Source: Candidatus Nealsonbacteria bacterium (GTDB lineage Bacteria; Patescibacteriota; Minisyncoccia; Minisyncoccales; CAZKCU01). From it: DNA of 64,000 nt. Below, one piece after another: positions 28,049-47,845 of this stretch. A program made the position numbers and the translations under genes. A model generated the notes under the pieces. That model was not told the DNA's origin. It searched no databases and saw nothing but the letters and a program-made list of their open reading frames with translations. The stretch is taken from positions 1,690-65,689 of the forward strand of contig CP179888.1 of assembly GCA_047456305.1 (NCBI GenBank). Reading direction: 5' to 3'. Each line of letters begins with the position of its first letter. Position 1 is the stretch's first letter.

Positions 28049-29005
28049 ATGAAAAAATCTAACATTCCTATAATTAAACATATCCCCGACTTTTTAGACT
28101 ATTGTGAAGTTGAAAAAGGATTAGCAGATAAAACTCAACTAAATTATAACCGCTACCTCACCAAGTTCACCCACTGGCTCAAAAAGACCAAAAAAGACAA
28201 CCTTCTGCCTCATGAACTGACTGCCGATGATATCTGGGCCTATCGCTTATATTTAAGTCGTTATACAGGAGAAAAAGGCCGTCCCTTGAAGAAAGTCACC
28301 CAGAACTACTATTTAATAGCTTTAAGAGCCCTTTTAAGCTATTTTACAGCCAAAGACCTAATATCACTCCCCGCAGATAAAATAAAGCTCCCAAAAGACG
28401 CTAAAGCCGAAAAAACCTTAAAATTCCTTAATTTAGAGCAAATTGAGAGGCTTTTAACAACTCCTAAGGGAAACAGCCCAATTGACTTACGGAATAGAGC
28501 TATTTTAGAGACACTTTTCTCAACCGGCCTTAGGATAGCTGAATTAGTGGCTCTGAACAAGGAACAGTTTACTAATATAAAAGATAAGAAAGATTTAGAA
28601 ATTGGAATTATTGGTAAAGGAAGTCATCCCCGCACAGTCTATTTTTCAGAAAGAGCCCTGTCTTGGATTAAGAAGTATTTGGAAACTCGTAAAGACAAAG
28701 AAAAACCATTATTTATACATTATAGAGCCCGGGAAGACGCCGAAGCCCGCCTTACAGCTCGTTCTATAGAAAGAATTGTCAAAAAATACGCTGTTTTAGC
28801 TGGCGTTCCTATCTTTACCACTCCTCATACTCTTCGTCACTCAATGGCAACTGATTTATTAACCCAAGGAGTTGATTTAAGAACTATTCAGGAATTTTTA
28901 GGCCACAGAAATATCGTCACAACTCAAATATATACCCACGTAACAAATAAGCGCCTCCGAGACATCCACCGTCAGTACCACAGCGGCAAAAATTTAAAAG
29001 AATAG
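28049..29005 (+). CDS. tyrosine recombinase / integrase, XerC/XerD family
   Basis: N-terminal SAM-like core-binding domain. The C-terminus ...RNRAILETLFSTGLRIAEL...HTLRHSMATDLL..G.DLRTIQEFLGHRNIVTTQIYTHV supplies the R..HxxR..Y catalytic set. Confidence 0.9.
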   Translation: MKKSNIPIIKHIPDFLDYCEVEKGLADKTQLNYNRYLTKFTHWLKKTKKDNLLPHELTADDIWAYRLYLSRYTGEKGRPLKKVTQNYYLIALRALLSYFTAKDLISLPADKIKLPKDAKAEKTLKFLNLEQIERLLTTPKGNSPIDLRNRAILETLFSTGLRIAELVALNKEQFTNIKDKKDLEIGIIGKGSHPRTVYFSERALSWIKKYLETRKDKEKPLFIHYRAREDAEARLTARSIERIVKKYAVLAGVPIFTTPHTLRHSMATDLLTQGVDLRTIQEFLGHRNIVTTQIYTHVTNKRLRDIHRQYHSGKNLKE

Positions 29006-29230: not shown

Positions 29231-29264
29231 TAAAAAATAAAAAGCCGTTAGTTTCCCTAACGGT
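29231..29264 (-). terminator. intrinsic terminator after the Doc operon
   Basis: Stem CCGTTAG/CTAACGG (29245-29263). On the minus strand a T-run follows (plus-strand A-run 29231-29243). Confidence 0.5.
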
Positions 29265-29294
29265 CTTCTCTCACCGATTAAATGTCGCACAATA

Positions 29295-29681
29295 TTAACT
29301 CTCCACTTTAGAATGTTTCTCTATCCATAATGCAATTTCCTCTAATGTGAGGTGATTATTTACTACTCGTATAGTAAACTTTTCTACTTCATTCGTTTCT
29401 AATTCGAAAGAGTAGTTGTTTCTGTTTAAAAAAATTTTTACAACAGTTATACTAGTCCTCTTATTTCCATCTATAAAAATATGTCCTTCATTTATTGTTC
29501 GTAAATAAAAGGCGGCTTTAAAAAATATATTTGGATAAAGTTCTTGCCCAAAAACACTCTGGGCAGGTTGCGTTTCTAACATTAAAAGAGCGTGTTCATT
29601 TAACACGCCCCCTAAACCTCCTGTCTTTATTAAGATTTCATCGTGTATCTCTAGAATCTCCTCACTAGATAAATAATACAT
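29295..29681 (-). CDS. doc: Doc (death-on-curing) Fic-fold toxin
   Basis: HIFIDGNKRTS matches the Doc variant of the Fic motif. 128 aa. Confidence 0.85.
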   Translation of the reverse strand: MYYLSSEEILEIHDEILIKTGGLGGVLNEHALLMLETQPAQSVFGQELYPNIFFKAAFYLRTINEGHIFIDGNKRTSITVVKIFLNRNNYSFELETNEVEKFTIRVVNNHLTLEEIALWIEKHSKVES

Positions 29682-29688
29682 AAGTTAA

Positions 29689-29892
29689 TTATTTCTTTGC
29701 GAGAGATTCGAAAGCTTTTCTGTGCTTCTCTATAAACTCTGATGTCTCTTTTCTAACATCAGAGCTATATCTTCTTAAAACAAAAAAGGAGTTTTCCGTT
29801 TTATTAACATTAAATGTTAACCAATTTTTAAACCAATTTGGTCTTTCAAATTGTATACTATTAGTGCTGCTTGAACTAGTAATTGAAGTCAT
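29689..29892 (-). CDS. putative cognate antitoxin
   Basis: 67-aa ORF 7 nt upstream of doc. No Phd motif recognised. Confidence 0.4.
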   Translation of the reverse strand: MTSITSSSSTNSIQFERPNWFKNWLTFNVNKTENSFFVLRRYSSDVRKETSEFIEKHRKAFESLAKK

Positions 29893-29894
29893 AT

Positions 29895-30254
29895 TTATTT
29901 TATTAAAGTTAAATTAATATTAGTGGCTAATTCTTCTTTATCAACAAGAGCTTTAATTGTGTAAATACCCTGTTCAGGAAAAATAATATTAGCAAACCTC
30001 GCAATAAAATAATGAGTTATTCCGGTTGGAACTTCTTTGTCAACAGCAGCTATTTCCTTATGATCTTTTATGACAGAAATTCTAAAATGATGATTGCCTG
30101 GTGTTCCCTGTACAACAACACTAACGATTAACTCTTTGTGTTTGGCAGGAAAATTCAAAGCTCTAATAGAATTATAAATCCCCTCTATCGTAACTTTTTT
30201 AGTGTTATCATCAATATTTACCCTGTCTGAAATAAGAAGAGATAAAATTTTCAT
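29895..30254 (-). CDS. hypothetical protein, first gene of the doc operon
   Basis: 119-aa ORF, with a 2-nt gap to the next gene. Confidence 0.4.
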   Translation of the reverse strand: MKILSLLISDRVNIDDNTKKVTIEGIYNSIRALNFPAKHKELIVSVVVQGTPGNHHFRISVIKDHKEIAAVDKEVPTGITHYFIARFANIIFPEQGIYTIKALVDKEELATNINLTLIK

Positions 30255-30399
30255 ATTTTTATCTTTTCATAATTTGATTAAACAATAAAAGTTTCTTGGT
30301 TTTTATATTCATATGAATCCGCCTGTAAAATTATTTTAGATAAATATATTATATCACAATAAGGACGAGTAAACAATATTTTTTTATTTTTATGATTTT

Positions 30400-30792
30400 T
30401 CTGGTGTGATTATCCGATAACGAAACTTTTTAGTTAAAGGAGCGGACAATATACCTAGTCTGACGTAAATTTTAGCTTCATTTTTTCCCTTAAGTCGCAT
30501 AAGCTAAGTTGTCTGACGCTTTTCGGCCCTATTCGCCACAACCATGTTGTCAGACTGTACATATACCTATTGAGACTCTTATCAGGGTTTAGGTCGCCCT
30601 TTATCTATTATATACCCTTCAAGACTCTTAACACTACAAGGTGTCCTAGCGCCATCCCCTAGTCGGTCTCGAACTTGGATTTTAAGGGGAAATTAAGGGT
30701 TCTTTGAGCGTGTCCCACAATGCCTCTCGGTCGGGGTGTTTTAACCTAAAATGAGACAAATGAGACACTACTTAAGGGTATATTCTATTGTC
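30400..30792. repeat. non-coding element, copy 1 (best-conserved core 30645-30747), paralog of 38041-38429
   Basis: No ORF. The core aligns by eye with 38308-38408 (CCTAGC..TCGGTCT..TTTTAAGGG.AATTA.G.GGTTCT..GTGTC.CAC..TCTCGGTCG.GGTGTTTT). Sits directly 3' of a minus-strand gene. Confidence 0.5.
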
Positions 30793-31545
30793 TCATTTTT
30801 TTGTTAAGATCTCAGAAATAACGATTGGCTTCCAGACAATGCCAATCTCAGTCCCGAAACTACCTATGTTCCTACCTGAATAGACACCGAGGAACCTTAC
30901 TGCATTACCTATGGTATTACCTTTTGATGTTTGATAAATCGATACTCTCTTTGCAATTACAGGAGAACCCGACATACCACCTTTAGTCGTGGCGTCAATT
31001 AAGAACGCTGGTTTCCCATTCCAATCCAAATCAATATCGGAGGCAATATGTCCAGTTTTCCATATTGGAAACATGCCGGCAGAAGTTAACCCTTCAGGAT
31101 AGCCTATAATACTTACGGCTTCGGAGGGATATATCATTAAATCGAAATTACTTAAAGACAAATCTATATCATATACTTCTATATTAGGAGCTATCAAGAA
31201 TTTAATTGCGACAACGTCAATTTCGTTCCCAGAGACATGCTCTAACCATAACTTATTGCCTTTCTGATCAATTAAATTAATCTCGCAGGAAATCCAAGAA
31301 CCCAGTTTTTTTCCATGAAACCAAACTCTTAATTTTTGGGGATCTGCCATTCCGTTTTTCGAAATGGGTTTATTATCTTTTGGATCCCTCCCAGTCACAA
31401 CGTGCCAATTCGTGATGATATAATAAGAATCATCTTTTTTAACTGCAAAACCTGTTCCAACTCCAAGACCCTTATCATTTAAAAGTGTTTCCAAATATAA
31501 TGGTTTTTGAGAAAACTCATCAATAAATTTAATATTTCTTTCCAT
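30793..31545 (-). CDS. trypsin-like (S1/Trypsin_2) serine protease, cytoplasmic
   Basis: The His (ITNWHVV), Asp (IDVVAIK) and Ser (GGMSGSPV) triad appears in the correct order. No signal peptide seen. Confidence 0.75.
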   Translation of the reverse strand: MERNIKFIDEFSQKPLYLETLLNDKGLGVGTGFAVKKDDSYYIITNWHVVTGRDPKDNKPISKNGMADPQKLRVWFHGKKLGSWISCEINLIDQKGNKLWLEHVSGNEIDVVAIKFLIAPNIEVYDIDLSLSNFDLMIYPSEAVSIIGYPEGLTSAGMFPIWKTGHIASDIDLDWNGKPAFLIDATTKGGMSGSPVIAKRVSIYQTSKGNTIGNAVRFLGVYSGRNIGSFGTEIGIVWKPIVISEILTKK

Positions 31546-31592
31546 GTTTCTTTGATTTTGACTCTTCTATTTTTGTTGTCTATTTATTAATT

Positions 31593-31781
31593 TTAATAAA
31601 TCTTCTTCTTTTTTAATTTATATCTTTGAGGATTTACTCTCCTGTCAATTTTGAGGAGTAACTCAAAAAATCCTAATAAATTATAAGCGGCCTCGGAGAC
31701 CTCTTTTTTGCTTAATTTTCTGCCGTAATCTTTTTCAAATATTTCCTGAAGCTCTTTAACGGTTTCTTCTGAAATTTGCAT
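31593..31781 (-). CDS. small helical hypothetical protein
   Basis: 62-aa ORF between the 192-aa gene and the protease. Confidence 0.35.
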   Translation of the reverse strand: MQISEETVKELQEIFEKDYGRKLSKKEVSEAAYNLLGFFELLLKIDRRVNPQRYKLKKKKIY

Positions 31782-31809
31782 GGATTATTGTTTTATTTTG
31801 TTAAAAAAA

Positions 31810-32388
31810 TCATATTTTCAATAAAAGAGGTTTCTGGCTTCTGTCAGTTGTGATTTTAATAATCGCTTTTTGTAATAATTGTTCATATGTTTTAGGTGCT
31901 TTTATCTCCTCTTTCTTAAAAGATATGGGTCTCCAATAACTAAAAAATATCCGTTTATATGTTTTTAATGAAAAATCAACTCGAATAAATTTTTCTGATT
32001 GATTTTTTAAGAAAATTGGTAAAAATATAGGTTTTCTTTCTAAACTTTTCTTTTCATTGATAATTTGGTCAACAATCATCACTCCATCTTTTTCATTTTC
32101 TCGAATTGCTTCACAAATTTTTACATAATTAGATTTGCATCTATAATTATCTTTCCCTATCCATTCTGCTTGAATATTCTCAATTATTAAATTTTCCTTT
32201 GAAGCATTAACTAACTTTAAAGTCATAAACCAATCAAGCATAGAGAATCTATCAATAGGTATAGTCAAATCAAACCCTGCAGCGCTTACAGTAGCCGGAA
32301 CGATACTTACCGAAAACTGCCTGAAGGAGACAGGTTTTGCTTTATTTATATCTATTATTTTATCTATTTTTACTAAATTTATATCCAT
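31810..32388 (-). CDS. hypothetical protein (192 aa)
   Basis: ORF with no recognised motif. Preceded by a degenerate junction module. Confidence 0.4.
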   Translation of the reverse strand: MDINLVKIDKIIDINKAKPVSFRQFSVSIVPATVSAAGFDLTIPIDRFSMLDWFMTLKLVNASKENLIIENIQAEWIGKDNYRCKSNYVKICEAIRENEKDGVMIVDQIINEKKSLERKPIFLPIFLKNQSEKFIRVDFSLKTYKRIFFSYWRPISFKKEEIKAPKTYEQLLQKAIIKITTDRSQKPLLLKI

Positions 32389-32443
32389 CTTTCCTCTAAA
32401 TTATTTTTCTTTTTGTTGAGCTTCGAGTTAAATTTTAGTTATT

Positions 32444-32569
32444 TTAGTGCTTTTCTTCAAATTTCCATTCGGTTTTGTGTTTTGGTAAGTTTGTCCATTT
32501 GGTCTTGTGTTTCTTGGGTGTTCTCGATTTTGTTTTATGTTTTTTTTCGGACTTCCATTTTGTTGGCAT
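32444..32569 (-). CDS. 41-aa lysine/histidine-rich peptide (below the ORF-track cutoff)
   Basis: Hand translation gives MPTKWKSEKKHKTKSRTPKKHKTKWTNLPKHKTEWKFEEKH. Framed by the same Y (5') and X-like (3') junction modules as its neighbours. Confidence 0.25.
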   Translation of the reverse strand: MPTKWKSEKKHKTKSRTPKKHKTKWTNLPKHKTEWKFEEKH

Positions 32570-32581
32570 AAAATTATAAAA

Positions 32582-32608
32582 GTTTTATTTCTCAATTAAT
32601 TCTTCGAC
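32582..32608 (-). repeat. junction module Y, copy 4
   Basis: The minus strand reads GTCGAAGAATTAATTGAGAAATAAAAC, 12 nt before the ATG of the 41-aa ORF. Confidence 0.75.
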
Positions 32609-32624
32609 CTTTATAATTTTCCTT

Positions 32625-32642
32625 AACTTCGGGCTAAATTTT
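32625..32642 (-). repeat. junction module X, copy 4
   Basis: AAAATTTAGCCCGAAGTT after the stop of 32649..33038. Degenerate copies lie at 32420-32436 and 34753-34768. Confidence 0.8.
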
Positions 32643-32648
32643 AGTTAT

Positions 32649-33038
32649 TTAATCGTTAAGTAGTTTAGGATTCTTCTTCCTAAAATATGCAATCAAAATT
32701 ACCTCTACTAAACTACACATATCTTTATCTTTTATTTCCTTATAGGCAAATTTACAATTATCAATAACCCATTTTCGCATTAATTTACCAAATGGAATTC
32801 CGTATATCTCATGTATTTTCTTTCTAAAAATACTTGTAGAACCTCTTCGTTCTCCAGAAATATGATCACTGTTTATCCTTCTATTTAAATTTTTCCCCTT
32901 CCCTGCGTAAATAATTTGATTTTTATTATAAATTAAATAAACTCCCTGGATTTCTGGAATTTTTCTAGTGTTTTCTATGGGTTTATTATTTAATAATTGA
33001 TTGGCAATTTTCTTTGCCTTTTTTAAAATTATTTCCAT
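32649..33038 (-). CDS. GIY-YIG nuclease-domain protein
   Basis: GVYLIYNKNQIIYAGKGKNLNRRI fits GIY...YIG...R. Confidence 0.6.
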   Translation of the reverse strand: MEIILKKAKKIANQLLNNKPIENTRKIPEIQGVYLIYNKNQIIYAGKGKNLNRRINSDHISGERRGSTSIFRKKIHEIYGIPFGKLMRKWVIDNCKFAYKEIKDKDMCSLVEVILIAYFRKKNPKLLND

Positions 33039-33044
33039 TTCCTC

Positions 33045-33062
33045 AATTTCGGGCTAAATTTT
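33045..33062 (-). repeat. junction module X, copy 3
   Basis: AAAATTTAGCCCGAAATT after the stop of 33065..33667. Confidence 0.8.
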
Positions 33063-33064
33063 GA

Positions 33065-33667
33065 TTATTTTTTATTTAATTTTCTTTTAAAATATTTTTC
33101 CGGATTTTTAAAATTTAAAATAGCTTCATTTATTACACTTTTTTCTTTTTCCTTTAACTTACTATTCTTAATTAATTGTTCAATCCATTCTGCAGTGGCT
33201 TTAAGATAAATACATAATAATCTTTCTGCCAGTTTTGTTTTTTCCCCTTCATTGTCAATATATTTTTTCATTTCTTTTTCTGTTTTTTTGATGCTTTGTT
33301 TGGATTTAATTATTCGGTGCATAGCCTCAATCCTTATTTTATTAAATTTTTCAATATCTTTAATAATCGATTTATCCTTTAAAACTCTTTCAAGGTTTAA
33401 TTTTGAATATCCAAGAGGTTTATTGACTGATAATGTCATAGCCTTAAACATGCTTTTTTTAAGGTGTAAATTTATTATATCTTCATTCAACTTAATAATT
33501 TCCTCTATGAGGTATTCAATTATTTGACTTTTAAAAAGAATATATGCTATATAAAATCCTTTTGTATATAGCATACTCCCTCTATCTAAAACTTGCATCA
33601 ATAATTTTGCTCCGCAATGTATCTCTTCTAATTTTTTCCTTAATCGGGTTAACTTCTTTTTTTGCAT
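33065..33667 (-). CDS. hypothetical helical protein (200 aa)
   Basis: ORF between X-type junctions. Confidence 0.4.
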   Translation of the reverse strand: MQKKKLTRLRKKLEEIHCGAKLLMQVLDRGSMLYTKGFYIAYILFKSQIIEYLIEEIIKLNEDIINLHLKKSMFKAMTLSVNKPLGYSKLNLERVLKDKSIIKDIEKFNKIRIEAMHRIIKSKQSIKKTEKEMKKYIDNEGEKTKLAERLLCIYLKATAEWIEQLIKNSKLKEKEKSVINEAILNFKNPEKYFKRKLNKK

Positions 33668-33687
33668 GATTTTTACAAAATTTCTTC

Positions 33688-33705
33688 AACTTCGGGCTAA
33701 ATTTT
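33688..33705 (-). repeat. junction module X, copy 2
   Basis: Identical 18-mer AAAATTTAGCCCGAAGTT after the stop of 33709..34035. Confidence 0.8.
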
Positions 33706-33708
33706 GAT

Positions 33709-34035
33709 TTATTTAAAAATTTTACTAAATGCCTCTATTAAAAATTTTATAGGACTAACTAACAACTCTAAAAAACCTAACAATCTAAACCTTAATGACC
33801 AAGGATAGTTTGCCCCACAATTATGACAATTAAGTGGTACAGGAGTAGAGGTCAAATCCACAAATCCTTCAATAATATAATGACCACGAATTGGAACGCC
33901 ACATTTAGGGCACCTATAAATTGTCTTTGCTCCGCATTTGTCACAAAATTCCTGTCTGAATTTAGGTGAACTATTATAATGGTCGGTTATTTGGTGCCCC
34001 CTCCGGCAAACCTGCATTGTCTCATAATGCCCCAT
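33709..34035 (-). CDS. multi-zinc-ribbon protein
   Basis: Three zinc-ribbon-like units: CRRGH...CDKCG, CPKCG, CHNCG. Confidence 0.5.
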   Translation of the reverse strand: MGHYETMQVCRRGHQITDHYNSSPKFRQEFCDKCGAKTIYRCPKCGVPIRGHYIIEGFVDLTSTPVPLNCHNCGANYPWSLRFRLLGFLELLVSPIKFLIEAFSKIFK

Positions 34036-34040
34036 AGTCT

Positions 34041-34068
34041 AATTTTATTTCTCAATTAATTTTTCGAC
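34041..34068 (-). repeat. junction module Y, copy 3
   Basis: The minus strand reads GTCGAAAAATTAATTGAGAAATAAAATT, 5 nt before the ATG. Confidence 0.75.
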
Positions 34069-34081
34069 TTTTTAGCTATAA

Positions 34082-34336
34082 TCACTTAAAGATCGCCACG
34101 ATTAACGAAAGAATAGTAATAACAGCCATTACAATTGTTATATTTTTTTGAAATCCTTTAACGTGACTTAATGTCTCATTTTGATTTTCTAGCGCTTCTA
34201 GTTGGAATACTTCTGGCGCTGTCATCACCCTTTTACACTTAGCACATATAAAATATGCCGGTATCGCACCCACCTCAAGCTCTCGCCTTGAGTCAGTATG
34301 TATCTCCCACTCGTGGTCGCATTTATTTTTAATCAT
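34082..34336 (-). CDS. small zinc-ribbon protein with C-terminal TM anchor
   Basis: CDHEW...CAKCKRV, then ITIVMAVITILSLIVAIF. Confidence 0.45.
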   Translation of the reverse strand: MIKNKCDHEWEIHTDSRRELEVGAIPAYFICAKCKRVMTAPEVFQLEALENQNETLSHVKGFQKNITIVMAVITILSLIVAIFK

Positions 34337-34342
34337 ATTTTT

Positions 34343-34360
34343 AACTTCGGGCTAAATTTT
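34343..34360 (-). repeat. junction module X, copy 1
   Basis: The minus strand reads AAAATTTAGCCCGAAGTT, starting 2 nt after a stop codon. Confidence 0.8.
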
Positions 34361-34362
34361 AA

Positions 34363-34725
34363 TTAGTTTTTATTTTTTGATTTATGATTGGTTAATAATT
34401 CGTGTTCTTCGTGTAAAATCTTTCCAGTTTTATTATCTTTTACTACGTGATGATATTCGTTTTTCTCACGATCAATTTCCATCTGAACTTCTACACCTTC
34501 TGACAACTTAGGATTTGTACTTGGCTTAAAACCACTGAAAACTTTTTTTAAAAACCCCTTAAAACCAGGACGTTTCTGTATTATTCTTATTGAATCCCGA
34601 ACTTTGACCGTATCAGAAATACATACTTTAAAAAGATTTGGTGTTTCTTTCTGGCATTGTCTACAAAATTTCGATTCTTTTTCTAGACCGCATTCTACAC
34701 AAAAAATTTTATCCGATTCTTCCAT
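34363..34725 (-). CDS. zinc-ribbon protein (120 aa)
   Basis: CVECG...CRQCQ. The true ATG is at 34725; the track ORF starts at a TTG inside the conserved junction. Confidence 0.45.
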   Translation of the reverse strand: MEESDKIFCVECGLEKESKFCRQCQKETPNLFKVCISDTVKVRDSIRIIQKRPGFKGFLKKVFSGFKPSTNPKLSEGVEVQMEIDREKNEYHHVVKDNKTGKILHEEHELLTNHKSKNKN

Positions 34726-34752
34726 AATTTTATTTCTCAATTAATTCTTTAA
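34726..34752 (-). repeat. junction module Y, copy 2
   Basis: The minus strand reads TTAAAGAATTAATTGAGAAATAAAATT followed by the ATG. Confidence 0.8.
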
Positions 34753-34779
34753 TACTTCCCGGAAATTTCATCTCTTATA

Positions 34780-35235
34780 CTAGACCAAAGATGCTTTTAT
34801 CAAACTCCCAAGTTCTGCCTTAATTAAGCTTTCTATATTAATGTTGTCTGCGAGCTTGATATTAAAAGTAATATGAAATTCTTGTCTTTCTTTTTCGCCA
34901 CGCTCAATCCCTTCGATCATATCGATTCCTTCAGAAGAAACTCTGATATTCAAAAATTGCTCTGAAACATTATCTTGGCTCCGAGACATAGAAATAAACC
35001 CCTTTTCATGTAAATATATCAAGGCATTATAAATATCATTATCGCTTCTCGATATTTCTATAAGACTCTTGCAAATTTTGTGCTCCCTATTGTCCATTGC
35101 CGGTGATTTTTCTCCTTTCAAAAAACCTCTCATTTGAAAACTTAATAAAAAATCATTTAAATACGCATAGTCATCTCTTTGAATATAATATAAATACAAA
35201 AGAATCTTTCCTGCAATTCTTTTAATTGGTTCCAT
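34780..35235 (-). CDS. hypothetical protein (151 aa), possible wHTH
   Basis: ATG at 35235. The upstream 26 nt are identical to those of 34363..34725. Confidence 0.45.
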   Translation of the reverse strand: MEPIKRIAGKILLYLYYIQRDDYAYLNDFLLSFQMRGFLKGEKSPAMDNREHKICKSLIEISRSDNDIYNALIYLHEKGFISMSRSQDNVSEQFLNIRVSSEGIDMIEGIERGEKERQEFHITFNIKLADNINIESLIKAELGSLIKASLV

Positions 35236-35264
35236 AATTTTATTTCTCAATTAATTCTTCGAAG
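35236..35264 (-). repeat. junction module Y, copy 1
   Basis: The minus strand reads CTTCGAAGAATTAATTGAGAAATAAAATT, directly followed by the ATG. Confidence 0.8.
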
Positions 35265-35272
35265 TTTTTACA

Positions 35273-36043
35273 TTATTTTTCGCCAATCCTAAACTTCGCT
35301 GATTTTACCAATTTAATACTGTTATAATCTTTAGGATTCTTGAATTCGAATTGCCAGATTGAATAAACATCTTCACCGCTCGCTTTATCAAAAAATAATG
35401 TAATAACTTTTTTCTTTGTCTGTTCTCGCCATTGTCTAAATGGATAAAAAAGCTGGCGGATAATAATATTTGTAGCGCTAAAGTTTTTTGCCTCAATAAG
35501 CACGACTTGATTTTTACCCTCATAACCAGCGTCAACTTCTGTCTGTACGCTTGAAACCTTAATGACTTGTTTGCCAACTTTAAATTCAAAATCAGGAGTA
35601 TATTTTCTGCCTCGTATCGTAAGAACAAGCGAAGGATCTTCCATAAAAGTACGGATTAAACTCGCAGCGTAAGCGAAATCAAGGTGCTGCATTTCTGAAT
35701 TACCTATTTTTGTCGTGTCTAATTGAAAGTCGAGCCTTGAAGAATAAACCACAACTTCTTTTTTAATTTCCGGAATATCGATATATCCTTCGCCTTTAAT
35801 AATGTTGTAGTAGCCATTTCTTACGGGAAGCAAAAACAAATTATGCTTTTGGAAAATATCTGGCCTACTTTCTCTACTATCTTGTTTGCATAAAATACGG
35901 ACTTCTTTCTCGCCCGTCTCTTTGAATTTCTGGCAGGCCCGCTTTATTTGCGTTGCAGAAAGTGGAAACGGCAATTTGTCAAAATCGTGATCTAAAATTT
36001 TATAGTCATCAAAAATTTTCTTCCAAGATTTGCTGTTTGCCAT
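35273..36043 (-). CDS. type II restriction endonuclease candidate (PD-(D/E)XK)
   Basis: 256-aa ORF 4 nt downstream of the methyltransferase. VQTEVDAGYEGKNQVVLIEAKN fits D-x(n)-E-x-K. Confidence 0.55.
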   Translation of the reverse strand: MANSKSWKKIFDDYKILDHDFDKLPFPLSATQIKRACQKFKETGEKEVRILCKQDSRESRPDIFQKHNLFLLPVRNGYYNIIKGEGYIDIPEIKKEVVVYSSRLDFQLDTTKIGNSEMQHLDFAYAASLIRTFMEDPSLVLTIRGRKYTPDFEFKVGKQVIKVSSVQTEVDAGYEGKNQVVLIEAKNFSATNIIIRQLFYPFRQWREQTKKKVITLFFDKASGEDVYSIWQFEFKNPKDYNSIKLVKSAKFRIGEK

Positions 36044-36047
36044 AGTA

Positions 36048-37502
36048 TTAAAGTAATTTACTTTTAATATTTTTATCTAACTCCTCGAATCGTTTAATTG
36101 ATAAATCCAAATATTTTTTATCGGTATCAATACCGACAAAATTTCTCCCTAAAAGATAAGCGGCAATGCCGGTTGTCGAGCTTCCGGTGAACGGATCAAC
36201 AATCAAATCCCCCTTTTTGGTACTAGCAAGCACAATTCTTTTTAATAAATCCTCCGGTTTTTGTGTTGGATGTTTTCCAAATTTTTTTTCAACAGACTTT
36301 GGCGTTCCTATAGACCAGATCGATCGCATTTGCGTATTGGGCTTTTTGATGGAATCTTCCGGCCAACTACCGTTCTTCATTAAATTATAATTGAAAGTGT
36401 GTTTTGCTTCTTTATCTTTCCTCGCCCAAAGCAAAGTTTCATGACTTGCGGTAAAATAACGACAGCTTAAATTAGGCGATGCATTCGGTTTAAACCAAGA
36501 AATATCATTTAAAATATGGAATTTAGCGACCTGCATAGCGAAACCGCATTGATAAATTGAATGATAGGTTCCGCTTACCCAAAGAGTTCCATTGGGCTTT
36601 AAAACACGCCTTACAGCCTTTATCCATTCGAGATGAAACTCAAAATCTTTTTTCAATCCATTACTTCTATCCCATTCTCCTTTATTAACGCTAACACGCC
36701 GCCCGGCATGAAGACTAAAGCCCCCGTTAGAAAGCAGATAAGGAGGATCGGCAAAAACCATATCAATCGAATTCTCTGGAAGCTCTGCGAGAATATCCAA
36801 GCAATTAGCGTGATACAATTTAAATTTAGGTTTCTCATAATATGGCTTCTTTGTTCCTATAATTTCTTTCTTTTGTTCCGAAGCTGTATTTTCTTTCCTC
36901 ACCATCTTTCCGATTAATTGTATTTCGGAAGTAAAGGGAATGTTTTTATATTTCAGATTTTCCGGCTTTAAGAATTTGTAGGGCGGTTTAGTTTGGCAAA
37001 CATAACGTTTTACGGTTGTACCATCTGGAGTTTGAGCTAAAACAATGTCGCCTGAGATGAATTCATTAGTTTTTTTAAACAAGATCAAATCTCCGTCGTT
37101 GATATTAGCATTAATCATTGAATCCCCCATAACGCGGACCACAATCACGTTGTCGGCAATAGTTTCTACGTCTTTTGATAAAGGTTGCCAAGCGTCAATT
37201 TCTTCTATAGCTTCGGTAAAACCTCCGGCCGAAGTATAACCGACTATCGGAGCTAAAGGAGAAACATCTATTGCTCTGTACCCTTTTTTGAGAATTTTGA
37301 TTCCGCGAGCCGAACCTTCTTCGCGAGTAATAAAATTCTTTCTTTCCAAAATAGAAAAAATGTCCAAAAGAGTTTGGTTTGAAGAAATATTGAGCTTTTC
37401 TTTAAGCTCGCTGAAAGAAGGTGGAAAACCGGCAGAAATCAAACTGTCATAAATGTTCTTTAGAACTTCCTTTTGTCTTTTTGTTATAGCTTCTTTTTGC
37501 AT
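36048..37502 (-). CDS. fusion protein: LexA-like repressor (wHTH + S24 peptidase) joined to a beta-class N6A/N4C DNA methyltransferase
   Basis: Residues ~1-205 are collinear with LexA: TKRQKEVL..GFPPS..E....RGIKIL, an Ala-Gly site in TSAGGF, GDSM serine, TVKRY lysine. Residues ~230-484 carry DPPY (motif IV) before DPFTGSSTTG (motif I). Confidence 0.8.
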   Translation of the reverse strand: MQKEAITKRQKEVLKNIYDSLISAGFPPSFSELKEKLNISSNQTLLDIFSILERKNFITREEGSARGIKILKKGYRAIDVSPLAPIVGYTSAGGFTEAIEEIDAWQPLSKDVETIADNVIVVRVMGDSMINANINDGDLILFKKTNEFISGDIVLAQTPDGTTVKRYVCQTKPPYKFLKPENLKYKNIPFTSEIQLIGKMVRKENTASEQKKEIIGTKKPYYEKPKFKLYHANCLDILAELPENSIDMVFADPPYLLSNGGFSLHAGRRVSVNKGEWDRSNGLKKDFEFHLEWIKAVRRVLKPNGTLWVSGTYHSIYQCGFAMQVAKFHILNDISWFKPNASPNLSCRYFTASHETLLWARKDKEAKHTFNYNLMKNGSWPEDSIKKPNTQMRSIWSIGTPKSVEKKFGKHPTQKPEDLLKRIVLASTKKGDLIVDPFTGSSTTGIAAYLLGRNFVGIDTDKKYLDLSIKRFEELDKNIKSKLL

Positions 37503-37508: not shown

Positions 37509-37538
37509 TAATAATACCCGACCAAGTGGTCGGGTGTC
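37509..37538 (-). promoter_or_regulatory. promoter TTGACA-18-TATTAT whose spacer is an 18-bp palindromic operator, 6 nt from the ATG
   Basis: Read on the minus strand: TTGACA (37538-37533), CCCGACCActTGGTCGGG (37532-37515, perfect 8-bp arms), TATTAT (37514-37509), 6 nt, then ATG at 37502. Confidence 0.55.
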
Positions 37539-37605
37539 AACAGAACTTTATCCACAGTCTTCTTATCCGAAATGTCGCACAAGATGCGTTATAAGGCTTT
37601 GAAAA

Positions 37606-37637: not shown

Positions 37638-37676
37638 GTTCCGAGGGACGGACGATGTTGAAACCTATTTGATAAA

Positions 37677-37719
37677 TTAAAACAAAATGCCTACAGACGG
37701 ATAATCTATCTGTAGGCAT
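37677..37719 (-). terminator. intrinsic terminator (usable from both strands)
   Basis: Perfect 11-bp stem ATGCCTACAGA/TCTGTAGGCAT (37687-37719). A T-rich tract follows on the minus strand. Confidence 0.6.
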
Positions 37720-37748
37720 TGCACGATGACTGCCCTCCTTAATATTCT

Positions 37749-37964
37749 TTATTTCGGTACAAATTCTACATCGTAGTTAACTAAGGAAAATAACTGTGTT
37801 GGCTCATTCTCAGTGGTGGGCGGGGCTATTTCTACAGCACCGCCCTCAAAAGCAAGCCCTATATACCCTTTTCCATTCCTGAGCTCTAAAACTTTTCTCC
37901 TGCCAAATATCCCCCTTTTTGTAACCGTAACCCTATAGACAGTAATAGCGTTATGTAATAACAT
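37749..37964 (-). CDS. hypothetical 71-aa protein
   Basis: Strong SD (AGGAGGGATAGA before the ATG) and a terminator directly downstream. Confidence 0.5.
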   Translation of the reverse strand: MLLHNAITVYRVTVTKRGIFGRRKVLELRNGKGYIGLAFEGGAVEIAPPTTENEPTQLFSLVNYDVEFVPK

Positions 37965-38010
37965 TCTATCCCTCCTTTTTTTGTGATTTTATATTATCTT
38001 ATCACCTACA

Positions 38011-38039
38011 ATAAAAAAAATCAAGCCCTAATGGCTTGA
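38011..38039 (-). terminator. intrinsic terminator closing the non-coding region 38041-38429
   Basis: Stem TCAAGCC/GGCTTGA (38021-38039). Eight T follow on the minus strand. Confidence 0.55.
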
Positions 38040-38040
38040 A

Positions 38041-38429
38041 ATTGCGAGCTTCGCGGGTAGAATTCGAACTAATACAAATTATGCGACATTGACTCCTCGT
38101 CCATAGATTATCCGTCTTAAGTCCTCAAACGCTGGTGTTGTGACGTTTATGTCGCACTATGCTCCTCATTCATAGATTGTGAAACAAGATAAGCTTTTGA
38201 CTCCTCTCTGATGCGAAGGACGTCATACGTCGGTGTTGTGGACACAAAGGGCGACATAAGTCCTCATCCGTTAATTATGCGACTCTTTTCGCTTGATTGG
38301 TTCGAATCCTAGCCCCTGGCATCCTCGGTCTGGAAATGAGGTTTTAAGGGTAATTTAGGCGGTTCTGGGGGTGTCTCACCGCCGCGTCTCGGTCGAGGTG
38401 TTTTTGAATAAAAGGAATAAATGCATGCC
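38041..38429. repeat. non-coding element, copy 2 (core 38308-38408), with internal ~65-110 nt sub-repeats
   Basis: No ORF. The core is paralogous to 30645-30747. The internal units GACTCCTC..CATAGATT / ..GGTGTTGTG..GCGACAT recur two to three times. Confidence 0.5.
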
Positions 38430-38708
38430 TTATTCGCACCCCCACCCATCTCCATCTCTGTCTAAATCAAAAACATCTGGACCAATAACACGAACACGCC
38501 CTGTATAATATGGGCCGTTACCAGATCCACCAGCGCAATCATAATCACTAGCATTTGGATTTAAACAGCCAGAATAGCTTGGGTGGCATTTTTGTTCTGG
38601 AAGAGTAACAGATTCCGATGATTGATTTGACTCGCTCAAGTTAGATATTAATCAAATCAAAAAGCCTATAAACATAAGGGTTAAAATTACCTTATTTATG
38701 TTTGTCAT
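38430..38708 (-). pseudogene. Excalibur calcium-binding-domain secreted protein interrupted by an in-frame TGA (pseudogene or recoded)
   Basis: C-terminus DCAGGSGNGPYY...DLDRDGDGWGCE is the Excalibur motif. ATG at 38708 gives MTNINKVILTLMFIGFLI, then TGA at 38654-38652, then the same frame continues LISNLSESNQ... Confidence 0.6.
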
Positions 38709-38723
38709 CTTTTCTCTTTTTAT

Positions 38724-38945
38724 TTATATTTTATGACACTCTTCATTACAATGTTTACATCCATCTATCTTCCATTCAGGAAAGCGTTTCTTGGCCTCCG
38801 CCATAGCATCTTCACAGTTAGAAAAATCACCAAGTCTAATTCTATTCTCTTGAAGAGGGGCTTCGGGACAATTATCATCTTTATGAATTTCGTGCTCACC
38901 ATGCTCTGGATAGGATTGAGGATTTTTATTTATATAATAAGACAT
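38724..38945 (-). CDS. small Cys/His-rich hypothetical protein
   Basis: 73-aa ORF with CPEAP...C....C.HCNEECH. Confidence 0.45.
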   Translation of the reverse strand: MSYYINKNPQSYPEHGEHEIHKDDNCPEAPLQENRIRLGDFSNCEDAMAEAKKRFPEWKIDGCKHCNEECHKI

Positions 38946-39108
38946 TTTATTAATTTTTTAATTGACAATTTCGACCTTTTTACTAATCCATGTTATCTGG
39001 ACAAACGAATTAGTAATCCAAAAATTGGCTTAAATAGCACTCTCAGGTCTGCCTCGATACTGCTCTGACTCGTGCTGCGGGTAATGAACGATGTTAGAAC
39101 CTGTTTGG

Positions 39109-39531
39109 TTAAATAAGTCCGAGCTTTTTCATCTCTTGAATAACTTCTAATCCTCCTGGACGAAGTTTGTAATCTTTCATCTCCTCTAATCTAACCCACT
39201 TAAAATCATCTGCATCATCTCCTGTTTCAACTTCTTTTCCGTTAGTTTCGCATTTAAATAACAGTATCGTAACGAATGGAAATGTCTTATAATTGTCAGA
39301 AGCTTTATTTTTAAAAACAGTTGAATAAATAAATTTTATTCCAGAGATATCTAAATTAACCTCTTCTTTTATTTCCCTTTTAAGAGCAGAGTCTATTGAT
39401 TCATTTTTCTCAACTATACCACCAGGAAAAAACCACAAACCTTCATGAAATTTACCCTTCTTTTTAACTAAAAGGTATTTATCTTTTTTTTGAATTATTC
39501 CGCTTACAACTATTAATGACTTGTTGTTCAT
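39109..39531 (-). CDS. NUDIX hydrolase
   Basis: Nudix box GGIVEKNESIDSALKREIKEEVNL. Confidence 0.8.
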   Translation of the reverse strand: MNNKSLIVVSGIIQKKDKYLLVKKKGKFHEGLWFFPGGIVEKNESIDSALKREIKEEVNLDISGIKFIYSTVFKNKASDNYKTFPFVTILLFKCETNGKEVETGDDADDFKWVRLEEMKDYKLRPGGLEVIQEMKKLGLI

Positions 39532-39540
39532 ATCTTTCTC

Positions 39541-39575
39541 ATTCTACCAAAAAACCACCTCTATTACCAAGTGAC
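39541..39575 (-). promoter_or_regulatory. P-box (hairpin + T-run + TGGTAGAAT), 9 nt before the NUDIX ATG
   Basis: The minus strand reads ...GGTAATAGAGGTGGTTTTTTGGTAGAAT. Confidence 0.5.
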
Positions 39576-39583
39576 AAATCACA

Positions 39584-39644
39584 GCTCCAGGAGCAGGATT
39601 CTAACTAATAAAAGTCTTAACTCCTCATTGATACGTAGTGCGAC
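39584..39644 (-). repeat. R1 repeat (tRNA 3'-end-like piece + GCATCAATGAGGAG block)
   Basis: The plus strand reads GCTCCAGGAGCAGGATTCTAACTAATAAAAGTCTTAACTCCTCATTGATACGTAGTGCGAC. Related copies lie at 38048, 51064 and 52963. Confidence 0.6.
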
Positions 39645-39772
39645 GGGAATAAAAAAGAGGTCTTTTTTTAAGGACGACCTCATGATATAGGCTTGGCTTC
39701 GAGGGTGGGACGTAATCAGAACTTGGTTTTGGGAGAGGTTTCTGGTGTTGGAACCTAGTTTCAAAAGGCACT

Positions 39773-40528
39773 CTAACGCTTTTGAGCAACGGTAATAAAA
39801 CTTTTACTGTCAAAATTGGGTGCGAATTTTAAAACTTTGAAATTGGCTTTGTTTAGGAATCTTTTTAATTCTTCTGGCGAAAATCCTCTTATGAGATCAT
39901 TAGTTTGATAGATTTTAGATTTTTTACCATCTACTTCAAAAGAGTAGAACCATCTAACAATAGTTGGCTTTTTAGAAATAATATGAAAACTGGAGGTTCT
40001 AGTTATTATGTGCCCTCTATTTTTTACTGCTTCTTCAGGTTTAAATATTTGTTTCTTTAACATTTTTTCAGCTTCAAAGTTGTCAAAGATTAGAACACTT
40101 TTATCTTTTAATACTTTATTAAAGCATTTTAAAGCTTTTTTTATATCTTTATCTTTAACCAAATGAGTAAAAGTCCTACCTATCAAGATTATCGCATCAA
40201 ATCTATCTTTTGTATTTATTTTTCTCATGTCACAGTGAATAACCTTAACATCGGGGTTTATAGTCTTAAAGATTTTATTTAAATCTTTAGAGTTATCTAA
40301 GGCAGTTATTTGAAACCCTTTCTTTTTTAAAATCTTTGTTAATCGCCCAGGTCCACTACCAACATGAAGCACACTTTTAACTTTGTAATTCCTTAAGTGT
40401 TTCTCAAACAACGAAGCTATAACGGGATAGTTCCAATGTTTCTCATAGAATAAATCATAAAGTTCAGCGAATTTGCCTTTATACAAATTTGGTAAAAGCT
40501 GATTTTCGATTCCTTGAAAGATTTTCAT
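39773..40528 (-). CDS. class I SAM-dependent methyltransferase
   Basis: Motif I VLHVGSGPGRLT. 251 aa. Confidence 0.75.
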   Translation of the reverse strand: MKIFQGIENQLLPNLYKGKFAELYDLFYEKHWNYPVIASLFEKHLRNYKVKSVLHVGSGPGRLTKILKKKGFQITALDNSKDLNKIFKTINPDVKVIHCDMRKINTKDRFDAIILIGRTFTHLVKDKDIKKALKCFNKVLKDKSVLIFDNFEAEKMLKKQIFKPEEAVKNRGHIITRTSSFHIISKKPTIVRWFYSFEVDGKKSKIYQTNDLIRGFSPEELKRFLNKANFKVLKFAPNFDSKSFITVAQKR

Positions 40529-40535
40529 ATTCTTA

Positions 40536-40565
40536 ATTCTACCAAAAAACCACTTTCTTGGCGAC
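40536..40565 (-). promoter_or_regulatory. P-box, 7 nt before the ATG at 40528
   Basis: The minus strand reads GTCGCCAAGAAAGTGGTTTTTTGGTAGAAT. Confidence 0.5.
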
Positions 40566-40653
40566 GCTCCTCATTGATGCGTAGTGCGACATAAAAAACC
40601 GCCCAAATAAATAGGGAGAATTGTCAGCTCCCCAGGTGGAACGATTTTAAAAT

Positions 40654-41328
40654 CTATTTCTTGGTCAATACAACGCTGTAATAAACGGGAATCTTTGCTG
40701 GTCCTTTTGAAAAAGCTCTAATTTTGAAATGTCTAATAATTTGATATCCAGTATTATTAAGAATTTTATTTATTTCTTTTTTACTCCTACGATAAAGTTT
40801 AAATTTCATAATATTGGGGGGATTTTTAATATAACCTTCGGCATTGTATTGAACTCTTAATTTTTGCAGTCGATGGTTAGGCAACAATAATTCATAAGTA
40901 AAAATAAAGTATCCATCTGCTTTTAATAATTGATATGTCTCTTTAATAATTCTTTTAATATTCTTTATAAATTCTAATACTCCTACTGCAATTATTATGT
41001 CAAAAGATTTATGTTTGAAATGGAGCCCGGTTAATCCATTGCTAATATTATATTTAAAAGTTTTTACTTCTGGGTATTTCTGTTTAACTATTTGTAGCAT
41101 TTTAGCAGAAATATCCACGGTATAGATTTTACAATTTTTATTTATAAAGATTTTTATACTTTGACCTGTGCCGACGCCTAAATCCAACACTGACGAATTA
41201 TTCTTAACTAATCTAAGTTGTGATAGCGTTTTGTTTACTTCATTCGGGGCAGACCACTTACCCTTTAGAGTGGCTTTGTTGTATTGATTAGCAAGTTTAT
41301 CATTATAAAGTTCAATAATTTTTGCCAT
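40654..41328 (-). CDS. class I SAM-dependent methyltransferase
   Basis: Motif I VLDLGVGTGQS. 224 aa. Confidence 0.75.
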   Translation of the reverse strand: MAKIIELYNDKLANQYNKATLKGKWSAPNEVNKTLSQLRLVKNNSSVLDLGVGTGQSIKIFINKNCKIYTVDISAKMLQIVKQKYPEVKTFKYNISNGLTGLHFKHKSFDIIIAVGVLEFIKNIKRIIKETYQLLKADGYFIFTYELLLPNHRLQKLRVQYNAEGYIKNPPNIMKFKLYRRSKKEINKILNNTGYQIIRHFKIRAFSKGPAKIPVYYSVVLTKK

Positions 41329-41335
41329 ATAATTT

Positions 41336-41367
41336 ATCCTACCAAAAAACCGCCCGATTGGCGATTC
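41336..41367 (-). promoter_or_regulatory. P-box, 7 nt before the ATG at 41328
   Basis: The minus strand reads GAATCGCCAATCGGGCGGTTTTTTGGTAGGAT. Confidence 0.5.
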
Positions 41368-41419
41368 TTGGTAGCTCCCCTAGTGGGATGACGTTAGAAC
41401 CTCTCTGGCAGGAAATTCC

Positions 41420-42079: not shown

Positions 42080-42154
42080 TTATAAAAATAAAAAAATTTA
42101 TTTTAATATACTCTCTTTTGACTTAAATTTCGGATTTTTTCTATACATTCTTTT

Positions 42155-42188
42155 ATCCTACCAAAAAACCGCCTTCTTGGCGATTTTT
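42155..42188 (-). promoter_or_regulatory. P-box, about 75 nt upstream of the ATG at 42079
   Basis: The minus strand reads AAAAATCGCCAAGAAGGCGGTTTTTTGGTAGGAT. Preceded by S hairpin CTCGGT/ACCGAG at 42196-42214. Confidence 0.45.
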
Positions 42189-42389
42189 GATGCGTCTCGG
42201 TCACCCGAACCGAGCACTAGCCTGCTCCCCAGTTCAAAGCTTAAACGAACTTTAGAGGACTTTGGGTATATGGCGATGGTGAAGGAGAAGCTGAACGAAA
42301 TCAAGATTTCCTGCCGCAATTACGGGATACCCCTGTTTCATTCACCCTCCCCCAATTGAACGCCATTCGAACCTGTTTGATGGAATTAA

Positions 42390-43556: not shown

Positions 43557-43599
43557 ATTGTTTTTTAATTAAAGTTATTTACTACGACCTTTCATTTCC

Positions 43600-43634
43600 A
43601 TTCTACCAAAAAACTGCCTGATTGGCGATTTTTT
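43600..43634 (-). promoter_or_regulatory. P-box, 43 nt upstream of the ATG at 43556
   Basis: The minus strand reads AAAAAATCGCCAATCAGGCAGTTTTTTGGTAGAAT. Confidence 0.45.
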
Positions 43635-45173: not shown

Positions 45174-45179
45174 ATTCTA

Positions 45180-45214
45180 ATTCTACCAAAAAACCACCTT
45201 CTTGGCGATTTTTT
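45180..45214 (-). promoter_or_regulatory. P-box, 6 nt before the GTG at 45173
   Basis: The minus strand reads AAAAAATCGCCAAGAAGGTGGTTTTTTGGTAGAAT TAGAAT GTG. Confidence 0.5.
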
Positions 45215-47679: not shown

Positions 47680-47845
47680 ATTATAGTTAAATATGAATTA
47701 ACTTAATTAATGTTTTAAGGTTTTATCCTAAAGTTTAGTTCTCCGAATAAACTCGACTAAATTTTTATTAGACAACTATCTTATGTAAATAAGATTAACA
47801 TTTAAAAGTTGACCAGTCAACCTAGAGAAATTAAGGTTTGAGATT

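Follow-up and report, generated by a model that had tools for sequence, protein, structure and literature searches.

Conserved stop- and start-anchored junction modules separate unrelated cassette genes behind a restriction-modification pair of Candidatus Nealsonbacteria and recur at the boundaries of variable genes across Parcubacteria

Why should a run of small, unrelated genes be separated again and again by the same two short sequences? The question is raised by a 64,000-nucleotide (nt) stretch of a Candidatus Nealsonbacteria chromosome (contig CP179888.1, positions 1,690 to 65,689; hereafter the window), in which seven to eight minus-strand open reading frames (ORFs) form an array whose junctions display two modules, named X and Y. 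Bacteria of the Candidate Phyla Radiation (CPR) have very small genomes and few recognisable mobile elements, and their gene-expression signals are largely uncharacterised. The original prediction, made from the letters of this locus, was a cassette-acquisition or cassette-shuffling site, conceptually like an integron. We consider it probable, with some reserve, that X and Y are portable intercistronic stop/restart modules in one long LexA-controlled restriction-modification (R-M) operon, which also bound independently exchanged cassettes. Most likely, they are a lineage-wide gene-boundary grammar serving expression and are not private to this locus.

Module X (AAAATTTAGCCCGAAGTT) occurs in the array in five minus-strand copies at three or fewer mismatches, compared to 0.22 expected, and a sixth match at 61190 is intragenic and chance-like. 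Module Y (TCGAAGAATTAATTGAGAAATAAAATT, with the 3' part GTCGAAGAATTAATTGAGAAATAAAATT) occurs in four minus-strand copies, compared to 0.00 expected. All nine copies lie within 2.9 kb (32418-35270) on one strand, and by profile both modules are absent from the rest of the 64 kb. The same set was recovered with profile hidden Markov models trained on external copies alone (70 X and 164 Y, window excluded), which returned the four Y at E values of 1.6e-8 to 9.4e-6, four good X copies at 1.6e-9 to about 5e-8 and a degenerate fifth X, and no further X or Y in the window below E=2. The two predicted modules are thereby confirmed, including the degenerate X near 32420; another degenerate X, proposed at 34753, is missed by the profile and is a relic at best. 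The predicted distances also hold, with X beginning 0-6 nt past a stop codon and Y finishing 0-12 nt ahead of an ATG. Read along the minus strand, the block that carries the array is laid out as follows.

37511 to 37540, minus strand: sigma-70-type promoter (TTGACA-18-TATTAT), an 11/12 match and the best of the block, ending 8 nt ahead of the first ATG.
36048 to 37502, minus strand: fusion of a LexA DNA-binding domain, an S24 peptidase and an N6/N4 DNA methyltransferase (MTase), first gene of the putative operon.
35273 to 36043, minus strand: Type II restriction endonuclease (REase; DUF6996/DUF6997), PADLOC REase_II 1.8e-34.
35233 to 35270, minus strand: Y copy 1, core 35236-35262, E 3.8e-8; its last base adjoins the p151 ATG.
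34780 to 35235, minus strand: p151, a winged-helix-like cassette with 43 homologues.
34724 to 34750, minus strand: Y copy 2, core 34726-34752, E 9.4e-6, with a degenerate 5' half; adjoins the p120 ATG.
34363 to 34725, minus strand: p120, a zinc-ribbon cassette (weak DZR match).
34336 to 34370, minus strand: X copy 1, exact core 34343-34360, E 5.3e-8; begins 2 nt past the p120 stop.
34082 to 34336, minus strand: p84 cassette, a CxxC protein with a C-terminal transmembrane helix.
34040 to 34077, minus strand: Y copy 3, core 34041-34067, E 1.6e-8; 5 nt ahead of the DUF2321 ATG.
33709 to 34035, minus strand: DUF2321 (double zinc ribbon) cassette, identical to XOB41824.1.
33680 to 33715, minus strand: X copy 2, exact core 33688-33705, E 1.6e-9.
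33065 to 33667, minus strand: p200, a helical near-ORFan cassette (homology search).
33037 to 33072, minus strand: X copy 3, core 33045-33062 with one mismatch, E 3.5e-9; followed by GAGGAA and an ATG.
32649 to 33038, minus strand: small GIY-YIG nuclease cassette (Pfam).
32616 to 32652, minus strand: X copy 4, exact core 32625-32642, E 6e-9.
32579 to 32614, minus strand: Y copy 4, core 32581-32607, E 2.7e-8; 16 nt past X copy 4, with which it forms a composite X+Y junction.
32444 to 32569, minus strand: putative 41-aa Lys/His-rich ORF (ORF list).
32418 to 32446, minus strand: X copy 5, degenerate, core 32419-32436 with three mismatches, E 0.0095.
29245 to 32388, minus strand: rest of the co-oriented block, without X or Y, with p192, p62, a trypsin-like peptidase, DUF6941 and Doc/Fic.

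In the external copies the consensus extends to TAAAATAATC-AAAATTTAGCCCGAAGTT-GAGG/GAGA for X and to ..CAAAAAGTCGAA(G/A)-AATTAATTGAGAAATAAAATT-ATG for Y. Together with its prefix TAAAATAATC, X displays stops in all three frames and then a GAGG that resembles a Shine-Dalgarno (SD) sequence; Y likewise has a stop in every frame, after which come GAGAAA, an A-rich spacer and the ATG. As had been noted, two listed ORFs that open on TTG share the artefactual start MRNKIME, and both do so by reading through Y. The string TTGAG(G/A)AA near the 3' end is common to X and Y, and shared ancestry of the two modules is not supported, the similarity of the consensus sequences not being significant (p=0.32).

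The anchoring to codons is equally clear outside the window. Of 64 long ORFs upstream of X, 45 reach their end inside the core or no more than 7 nt ahead of it, and the main offsets of the ORF ends (+7, +2 and -9) fall in three different frames; the next ATG follows X at 0-76 nt. Five X copies precede a terminator and a promoter instead of a gene, which assigns X to the upstream unit, at its 3' end. At the Y core the ATG stands at -1 to 4 nt in 95 of 146 cases, and 40 upstream ORFs stop at the three stop codons of Y (13, 10 and 17, respectively). We rejected the idea that Y encodes the C terminus of a conserved protein (KVEELIEK and a stop), because ORFs run into it in each of the three frames alike, and for most Y copies there is no long ORF upstream. 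Conservation of the modules reaches at least 90% identity over 18-45 nt, compared to about 75-85% in the flanking genes. The fold energies of X and Y are no better than those of shuffled sequences (z -1.4 to +1.7), and Rfam searches of the window and of 19 loci gave no match at the gathering threshold, nor any at E<=1 in 32300-35400. A structured RNA or an attC-like hairpin is ruled out by these folding and Rfam searches.

In order to follow the modules beyond this genome, X was scanned by exact match with one genome per species. Among the matches listed are multi-copy co-oriented X in contigs labelled Parcubacteria, Paceibacterota, Saccharibacteria and others (L016, L022, L033, L035, L043, L065, L088, L090 and L100), together with many lone matches in unrelated taxa that are core-only chance matches. 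An exact-match metagenome scan with the Y core returned at least 120 contigs, mainly from groundwater and sediment. The modules are found in hundreds of independent assemblies from JGI, ENA, NCBI and Logan, beside unrelated neighbour genes, and a profile search of 731 kb from other CPR/Parcubacteria contigs detects 274 copies. Where a locus has two or more copies, they share a single strand in 67 of 67 loci, and 145 of 145 neighbouring pairs are co-oriented; the spacing has a median of 756 nt, with 64% below 1 kb. The modules are thus widespread yet strictly tied to gene boundaries, which is not the behaviour of a generic intergenic repeat. In IMG/VR we found no Y, X only as single, core-only matches at chance level, and no relatives of the REase or of p200, and a phage-borne element was rejected on these grounds. 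A trait of the DUF2321 family was likewise rejected: outside this lineage the DUF2321 homologues stand at ordinary SD junctions with neither X nor Y, which ties the modules to the arrays of the lineage rather than to the gene family. X and Y were not found in the open-access literature, by sequence or by topic, and have no Rfam family, in agreement with the original view that they are undescribed.

Three further observations concern the surroundings of Y. In L139 (6779-6808), L143, L151, L162, L164, L177, L212, L216 and L230, though nowhere in the window, Y is split by a GC-rich variable hairpin between GTCGAA and CAAGAAATTAATTGAG, perhaps a palindromic element nested in Y or else a structured variant. 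Immediately 5' of some 15-20 Y copies (for example in L132, L150, L153, L173, L178, L195 and L217) is a conserved AT-rich palindrome, AAAATAGnGTCAACTCTATTTT, which could be an operator or a weak terminator. Boxes of the form AAAG(G)TCGAA, like the 5' half of Y, are seen in the window upstream of three phage structural genes (8340-8376, 12600-12640 and 17795-17838), where the Y profile misses them. Besides, a DUF3800-V RNA (Rfam RF02964, 67.6 bits) is present at L130 5023-5120, in a locus that also has Y ahead of a DUF3800 gene.

The genes held between these junctions have little in common. The array ORFs are mutually unrelated, as predicted (BLASTP, all E >= 0.1), and Pfam assigns DUF2321/double zinc ribbon, GIY-YIG and a weak zinc ribbon (DZR), with no family for the remaining array ORFs. 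Of the identities first proposed, GIY-YIG and the zinc ribbon of DUF2321 are upheld, and a second, double zinc ribbon weakly so, while the winged-helix-turn-helix assignment of p151 is left with weak fold matches: its structure model is confident (predicted local distance difference test, pLDDT, 91.2) and the protein has no Pfam family. For p200, a search of 1.84 billion representatives gave a single relative at 39% identity and a few others near 30%. Three array proteins are 100% identical to proteins of an NCBI Candidatus Nealsonbacteria metagenome-assembled genome (XOB41824.1, ACKKMS_00265 and ACKKMS_00285). The GC content of the array is 29.3%, compared to 35.5% in the host part of the window (39-64 kb, with MgtE, CTP synthase, DnaK and tRNA-Lys) and 40.9% in the phage part (1-27.7 kb, with structural genes including portal and capsid).

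The array lies directly 3' of the REase and LexA-S24-MTase genes and in the same orientation, which agrees with the placement originally described. One strong promoter is detected between 37540 and 29245; the sole weak minus-strand terminator before the end (32333-32317) is inside the p192 coding region, and the first convincing one of the block is at 29263-29245. From these predicted signals, the minus-strand block 37540-29245 looks like a single transcription unit. A 20-nt palindrome, ACCCGACCACTTGGTCGGGT, also scored as a hairpin at 37535-37516, falls within the 37540 promoter and is likely an operator. We also observed a second LexA/S24/MTase fusion (624 aa, L259 989-2863) beside an MvaI/BcnI REase on an unrelated metagenome contig, and such fusions suggest an SOS-like or self-cleaving control of R-M in the lineage. 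The p151 family recurs beside differing R-M systems (Type II DUF6996/6997, Type III Mod/Res, Type I/IIG and MvaI/BcnI) and may be an R-M-associated regulator.

A comparable setting is seen elsewhere. The genes that come directly after a module encode 122 distinct proteins, which match 81 Pfam families, including DUF3795, PD-(D/E)XK, NUDIX, GNAT, NYN, GmrSD_N, DUF3800, MazG, AbiJ, Mrr, GrpB and nitroreductase. When 122 module-free control genes were taken from the same loci and strand, they were mostly R-M components (ResIII, N6_Mtase, Methylase_S, Eco57I, MmeI, NgoPII, C5 MTase and Type ISP). The loci that carry modules are therefore rich in R-M, and the layout of the window, with the array right behind an R-M pair, is typical.

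We then compared relatives of the locus, and they do not keep one gene order, as an ordinary operon would. In L139, orthologues of the REase (81% protein identity) and of the MTase (69%) are followed by differing genes, several of them behind Y or X. The loci L207 and L208 share a [Y-DUF3795-152aa-Y] segment at 94%, with homology that begins at the Y core and stops just past the next Y, and the two loci carry the same cassettes in permuted order. The Y-p151-junction segment of the window (35262-34716) aligns with L250 5974-6519 at 78%, while the flanks are unrelated; the L250 homologue of p151 (73% protein identity) stands behind a Type III R-M system, with Y directly upstream and X directly downstream. 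Homologues of p151 have X/Y flanks in L250-L255 and in L259-L261, where X, a Y-like leader and Y surround the gene. Replacement is also seen between close strains. L250 and L251 come from different samples of a single project, share 9050 nt at 99.93% identity and part ways within X; past this point L250 carries DUF218 and a methyltransferase (1.6 kb) and L251 an 84-aa gene (0.27 kb), and homology returns at 95% at a Y-like leader ahead of MscL. The proposal of cassette shuffling is supported by the permutation, by the recurrence of Y-p151-X and by this replacement; the array is not an integron, however, and the modules are lineage-wide.

A XerC/D-like tyrosine recombinase gene (window 28049-29005) lies 3.4 kb from the array and convergent with it. 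Its orthologues in Candidatus Paceibacter normanii (L031) and in L049 are likewise followed by differing minus-strand, X-bearing genes. Across the three genomes (window, L031 1128-2084 and L049 5724-6677) the gene is conserved at 88% protein identity and differing defence-type cargo follows, an AAA ATPase plus an RloB-like pair in L031; in the window, phage structural genes lie on the other side of the gene. It seems that the Xer-like recombinase marks an island border or hotspot that has been conserved.

These observations can be joined in one mechanism. A transcript would start at the operator-bearing promoter at 37540 and run through the LexA-MTase, the REase and the small genes to the terminator at 29245. 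Within it, X would end the upstream ORF in whatever frame it is read, and Y would likewise stop every frame and restart translation at the next ATG. Because the modules would end upstream and restart downstream translation, any ORF placed between two of them could be expressed without a promoter of its own. Since copies that hardly differ stand beside unrelated genes in many genomes, the modules also bound units that are lost, gained, replaced and permuted independently. Exchange would most likely proceed by recombination within the short shared modules or through flanking homology, for example after DNA uptake. The architecture of the junctions and their recurrence are solid; their function and the mechanism of exchange are offered as hypotheses.

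Several points weigh against this stop/restart and exchange reading. The stop/restart role is read from position alone, many genes of this organism apparently lack an SD sequence and have leaderless-type promoters, and a near-invariant sequence of 18-45 nt far exceeds what an SD or a ribosome binding site needs; such conservation makes it likely that a sequence-specific factor (protein, RNA or nuclease) acts on X and Y. As to exchange, the homology tracts are short for RecA-dependent recombination, p151 homologues in L256 and L258 have no adjoining X or Y, the L250/L251 contrast is drawn from metagenome assemblies and exact crossover sites are unreadable from alignments. The breakpoints themselves are bounded by modules: among loci less than 97% identical, synteny crosses 2 of 133 module-junction events and 17 of 152 module-free ones (odds ratio 8.2, p=0.0013), counted over junction-partner events that are not independent, and among loci less than 90% identical it crosses 0 of 121 and 13 of 140, respectively. 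This excess could come in part from multi-gene systems such as R-M operons, which are naturally without internal modules. An apparent enrichment of breakpoints at modules over random positions (20% vs 3%) was discounted, because a module is present in any case at roughly one gene junction in four, and it shows only that breaks fall at gene boundaries.

Promoters in this lineage have a recognisable form of their own, seen in a third repeat of the window. Module Z consists of AAAAATCGCCAAnAAGGCGGTTTTTTGGTAGAAT followed by an ATG 6-9 nt later, with eight minus-strand copies between 39532 and 51975, among them the following.

39532-39560, 40526-40570, 41326-41370, 42145-42189, 43590-43634, 45170-45214 and 51931-51975, minus strand: copies of module Z.

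In the external X/Y loci, Z has 68 copies compared to 2.25 in shuffled sequences, 64 of the 68 being co-oriented with X and Y, and the sequence of its hairpin is itself conserved. Z reads as an intrinsic terminator joined to an extended -10 promoter of the leaderless type. Separately, the repeat families D9-D13, D18 and D19 of the window include tRNA-like T-arm/acceptor strings (reverse complement GGTTCGAGTCCTACCGCCGGAGC). These are uncalled by ARAGORN and Rfam, even at E<=0.1, and may represent odd tRNAs, tRNAs with introns, repeats derived from tRNA or a non-coding RNA of another kind.

37640-39650, 47845-47910, 50184-50260, 51062-51200 and 52961-53025: tRNA-like repeats (repeat search).

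Could X and/or Y be promoters instead, each cassette being its own transcription unit, with TAAAAT of the X prefix as a -10 box or an alternative sigma factor acting on the GCCCGAAG/GTCGAAG core? The TAAAAT lies 4-5 nt ahead of the core, and transcription would then begin in the A-run of X; X comes after a TATAAA box, roughly where a start site would lie, in two loci (L016 331 and L022 155), the TAAA-N16-CCGA of X may recall sigma-28-type promoter spacing, and the AT-rich palindrome ahead of some Y copies may be counted on the same side. However, conservation forms one contiguous block and not two hexamers with a spacer, and in a consensus scan of the minus strand the sole overlap with X or Y is a 9/12 match at 32460-32432, over the degenerate X copy 5. 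The region has hardly more promoter-like sites than shuffled sequences have (49 vs 38.8 +/- 7.3). Promoters of the lineage look different, with a terminator, TTTTTTGGTAGAAT and an ATG 6-8 nt on (the 68 external copies), and in L207 the Y core sits downstream of such a promoter, as a leader. Y ends 2-3 nt ahead of the ATG, and its best -10-like TAAAAT would put the start inside the ORF. Inspection by eye for canonical -35/-10 or alternative-sigma elements gave no consistent fit, and we hold the promoter explanation to be unlikely. Contiguous, unstructured conservation of 18-45 nt between cistrons would suit a recognised site better than a plain ribosome binding site, and X is kept after a gene even with a terminator next to it. 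Both would fit X and Y as RNA sites for a sequence-specific endoribonuclease or RNA-binding protein that cuts the polycistron into stable, translatable monocistrons, as plastid intercistronic expression elements do by analogy; turnover would then be ordinary island dynamics. No candidate factor was identified, and such sites, while compatible with module-bounded replacement and permutation, would leave them unexplained; we regard this as quite unlikely.

Site-specific recombination, with X and Y as integron attC or Xer/pdif sites cut by the Xer-like enzyme of 28049-29005 or by an unlinked one, would account for co-oriented, promoterless single-gene units behind one promoter and for the position of X at the 3' end of a unit, like attC. 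The conserved part of X ends in GTT and purines, recalling GTTRRRY, and a tyrosine recombinase is close by, whose 88% orthologues in L031 and L049 also precede variable X-bearing genes. Yet the modules are short (18-45 nt), have no inverse core site, no dyad symmetry and no stable hairpin (on the z scores given above), and all copies are direct repeats while pdif sites alternate. The enzyme itself matches XerC/XerD over its full length (about 215 bits) and the integron-integrase model TIGR02249 only at residues 234-302, with 92 bits against a cut-off of 265; its gene is convergent with the array, not divergent, and a homologue is present in just 1 of about 120 Y-selected loci. The absence of attC-style structure and of an IntI, noted at the outset, is thus borne out by folding and by the Xer-type model match, and a recombinase explanation is very doubtful. 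The simplest alternative, an ordinary operon with locally duplicated spacers of no wider significance, draws on the confinement of all copies to 2.9 kb of a single strand. It is refuted by the profiles and scans, since profiles built without the window recover all nine copies and the modules stand beside unrelated genes in hundreds of independent assemblies, and it has next to no credibility left.

Portable stop/restart modules therefore remain our preferred explanation. A bolder form of it, which we put forward tentatively and hold to be rather less than an even chance, is that X, Y and Z make up a previously undescribed plug-and-play gene-boundary grammar of Parcubacteria/CPR, with a three-frame stop, a restart in an R-M-anchored operon and integrase-free exchange between cells by short homology at the modules, for instance after natural DNA uptake. 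If true, it would be an integron analogue for ultra-small genomes and a main route of turnover of their defence and accessory genes. Already, two or three defined and searchable modules mark the flexible part of CPR genomes (the R-M/defence islands), near-identical strains provide direct cases of cassette replacement, and there is a testable hypothesis for the expression of promoterless foreign ORFs in CPR bacteria. Should this be confirmed, metagenomes could be mined with the modules for the accessory and defence gene pools of CPR bacteria, as is done with attC for integron cassettes, and the modules could also act as compact intercistronic parts in synthetic operons.

How does this architecture relate to known systems? 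The promoter early stem-loops (PeSLs) of T4-type phages are mobile regulatory cassettes, composed of a terminator/promoter and a stem-loop, that were proposed as points of homologous exchange (PMC2839356, PMC4122927). Like X and Y, they are short conserved regulatory repeats between unrelated, mostly unknown ORFs of hyperplastic regions, and they stand at the ends of indels or replacements between close relatives. Unlike PeSLs, which belong to lytic phage genomes, X and Y reside in a bacterial chromosome (with DnaK, CTP synthase and MgtE), are anchored to codons and have neither a stable hairpin nor a consistent promoter (one weak site, at 32460-32432 over X copy 5). With its terminator and extended -10 promoter, module Z is PeSL-like and the closer structural counterpart. 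The start-associated sequences (SAS) and extended SAS (ESAS) of Cluster K mycobacteriophages are 13 bp long (GGGATAGGAGCCC) and lie 3-7 bp ahead of starts in one orientation (PMC3203893). They are asymmetric, with an SD-like core, and precede non-structural genes of differing families, sometimes with the upstream stop inside; their function is unproven and thought to be translation initiation (PMC3203893). Y follows the same rules of position and orientation. In contrast, SAS are confined to one phage cluster and absent from the host, while Y is about 30-45 nt long, of another sequence, cellular and present in many genomes; it has three-frame stops and a stop-anchored partner in X, and cassette exchange at SAS is undescribed.

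Chromosomal integrons, such as the Vibrio superintegron with its Vibrio cholerae repeats (VCR/attC), resemble the array in their co-oriented, mostly promoterless single-gene cassettes with a common promoter and a 3' repeat. Their cargo is also alike, with small accessory enzymes (GNAT, NUDIX, MazG, GrpB and nitroreductase), defence genes and ORFans that vary between relatives; the cassettes of the array type are predicted to be promoterless, are co-oriented and vary in L139, L031, L049 and L250/L251. The differences lie in the machinery. The array has no IntI, no attI and no imperfect inverted repeat of the attC type, attC being a hairpin of 55-140 nt (R''/L''...L'/R') and X and Y unstructured over 18-45 nt; a repeat search of the window returned no arrayed inverted repeats. 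The junction is in two parts, stop-anchored and start-anchored, and IntI, with its extra domain, is adjacent and divergent, whereas the Xer-like gene of the window is convergent and 3.4 kb away. No dedicated acquisition machinery was found, so "integron-like" is valid for architecture and behaviour only. The pdif sites (XerC/XerD) of Acinetobacter plasmids are 28-bp dyads of 11-6-11 in alternating orientation. As in the array, gene modules stand between short conserved sites in differing contexts, and in the window a Xer-type recombinase is near; X and Y differ in being non-palindromic, without the 11-6-11 dyad, and in direct orientation in 145 of 145 pairs. Conserved junction repeats that organise shufflable cassettes are known as a kind elsewhere, and here they are found in CPR chromosomes.

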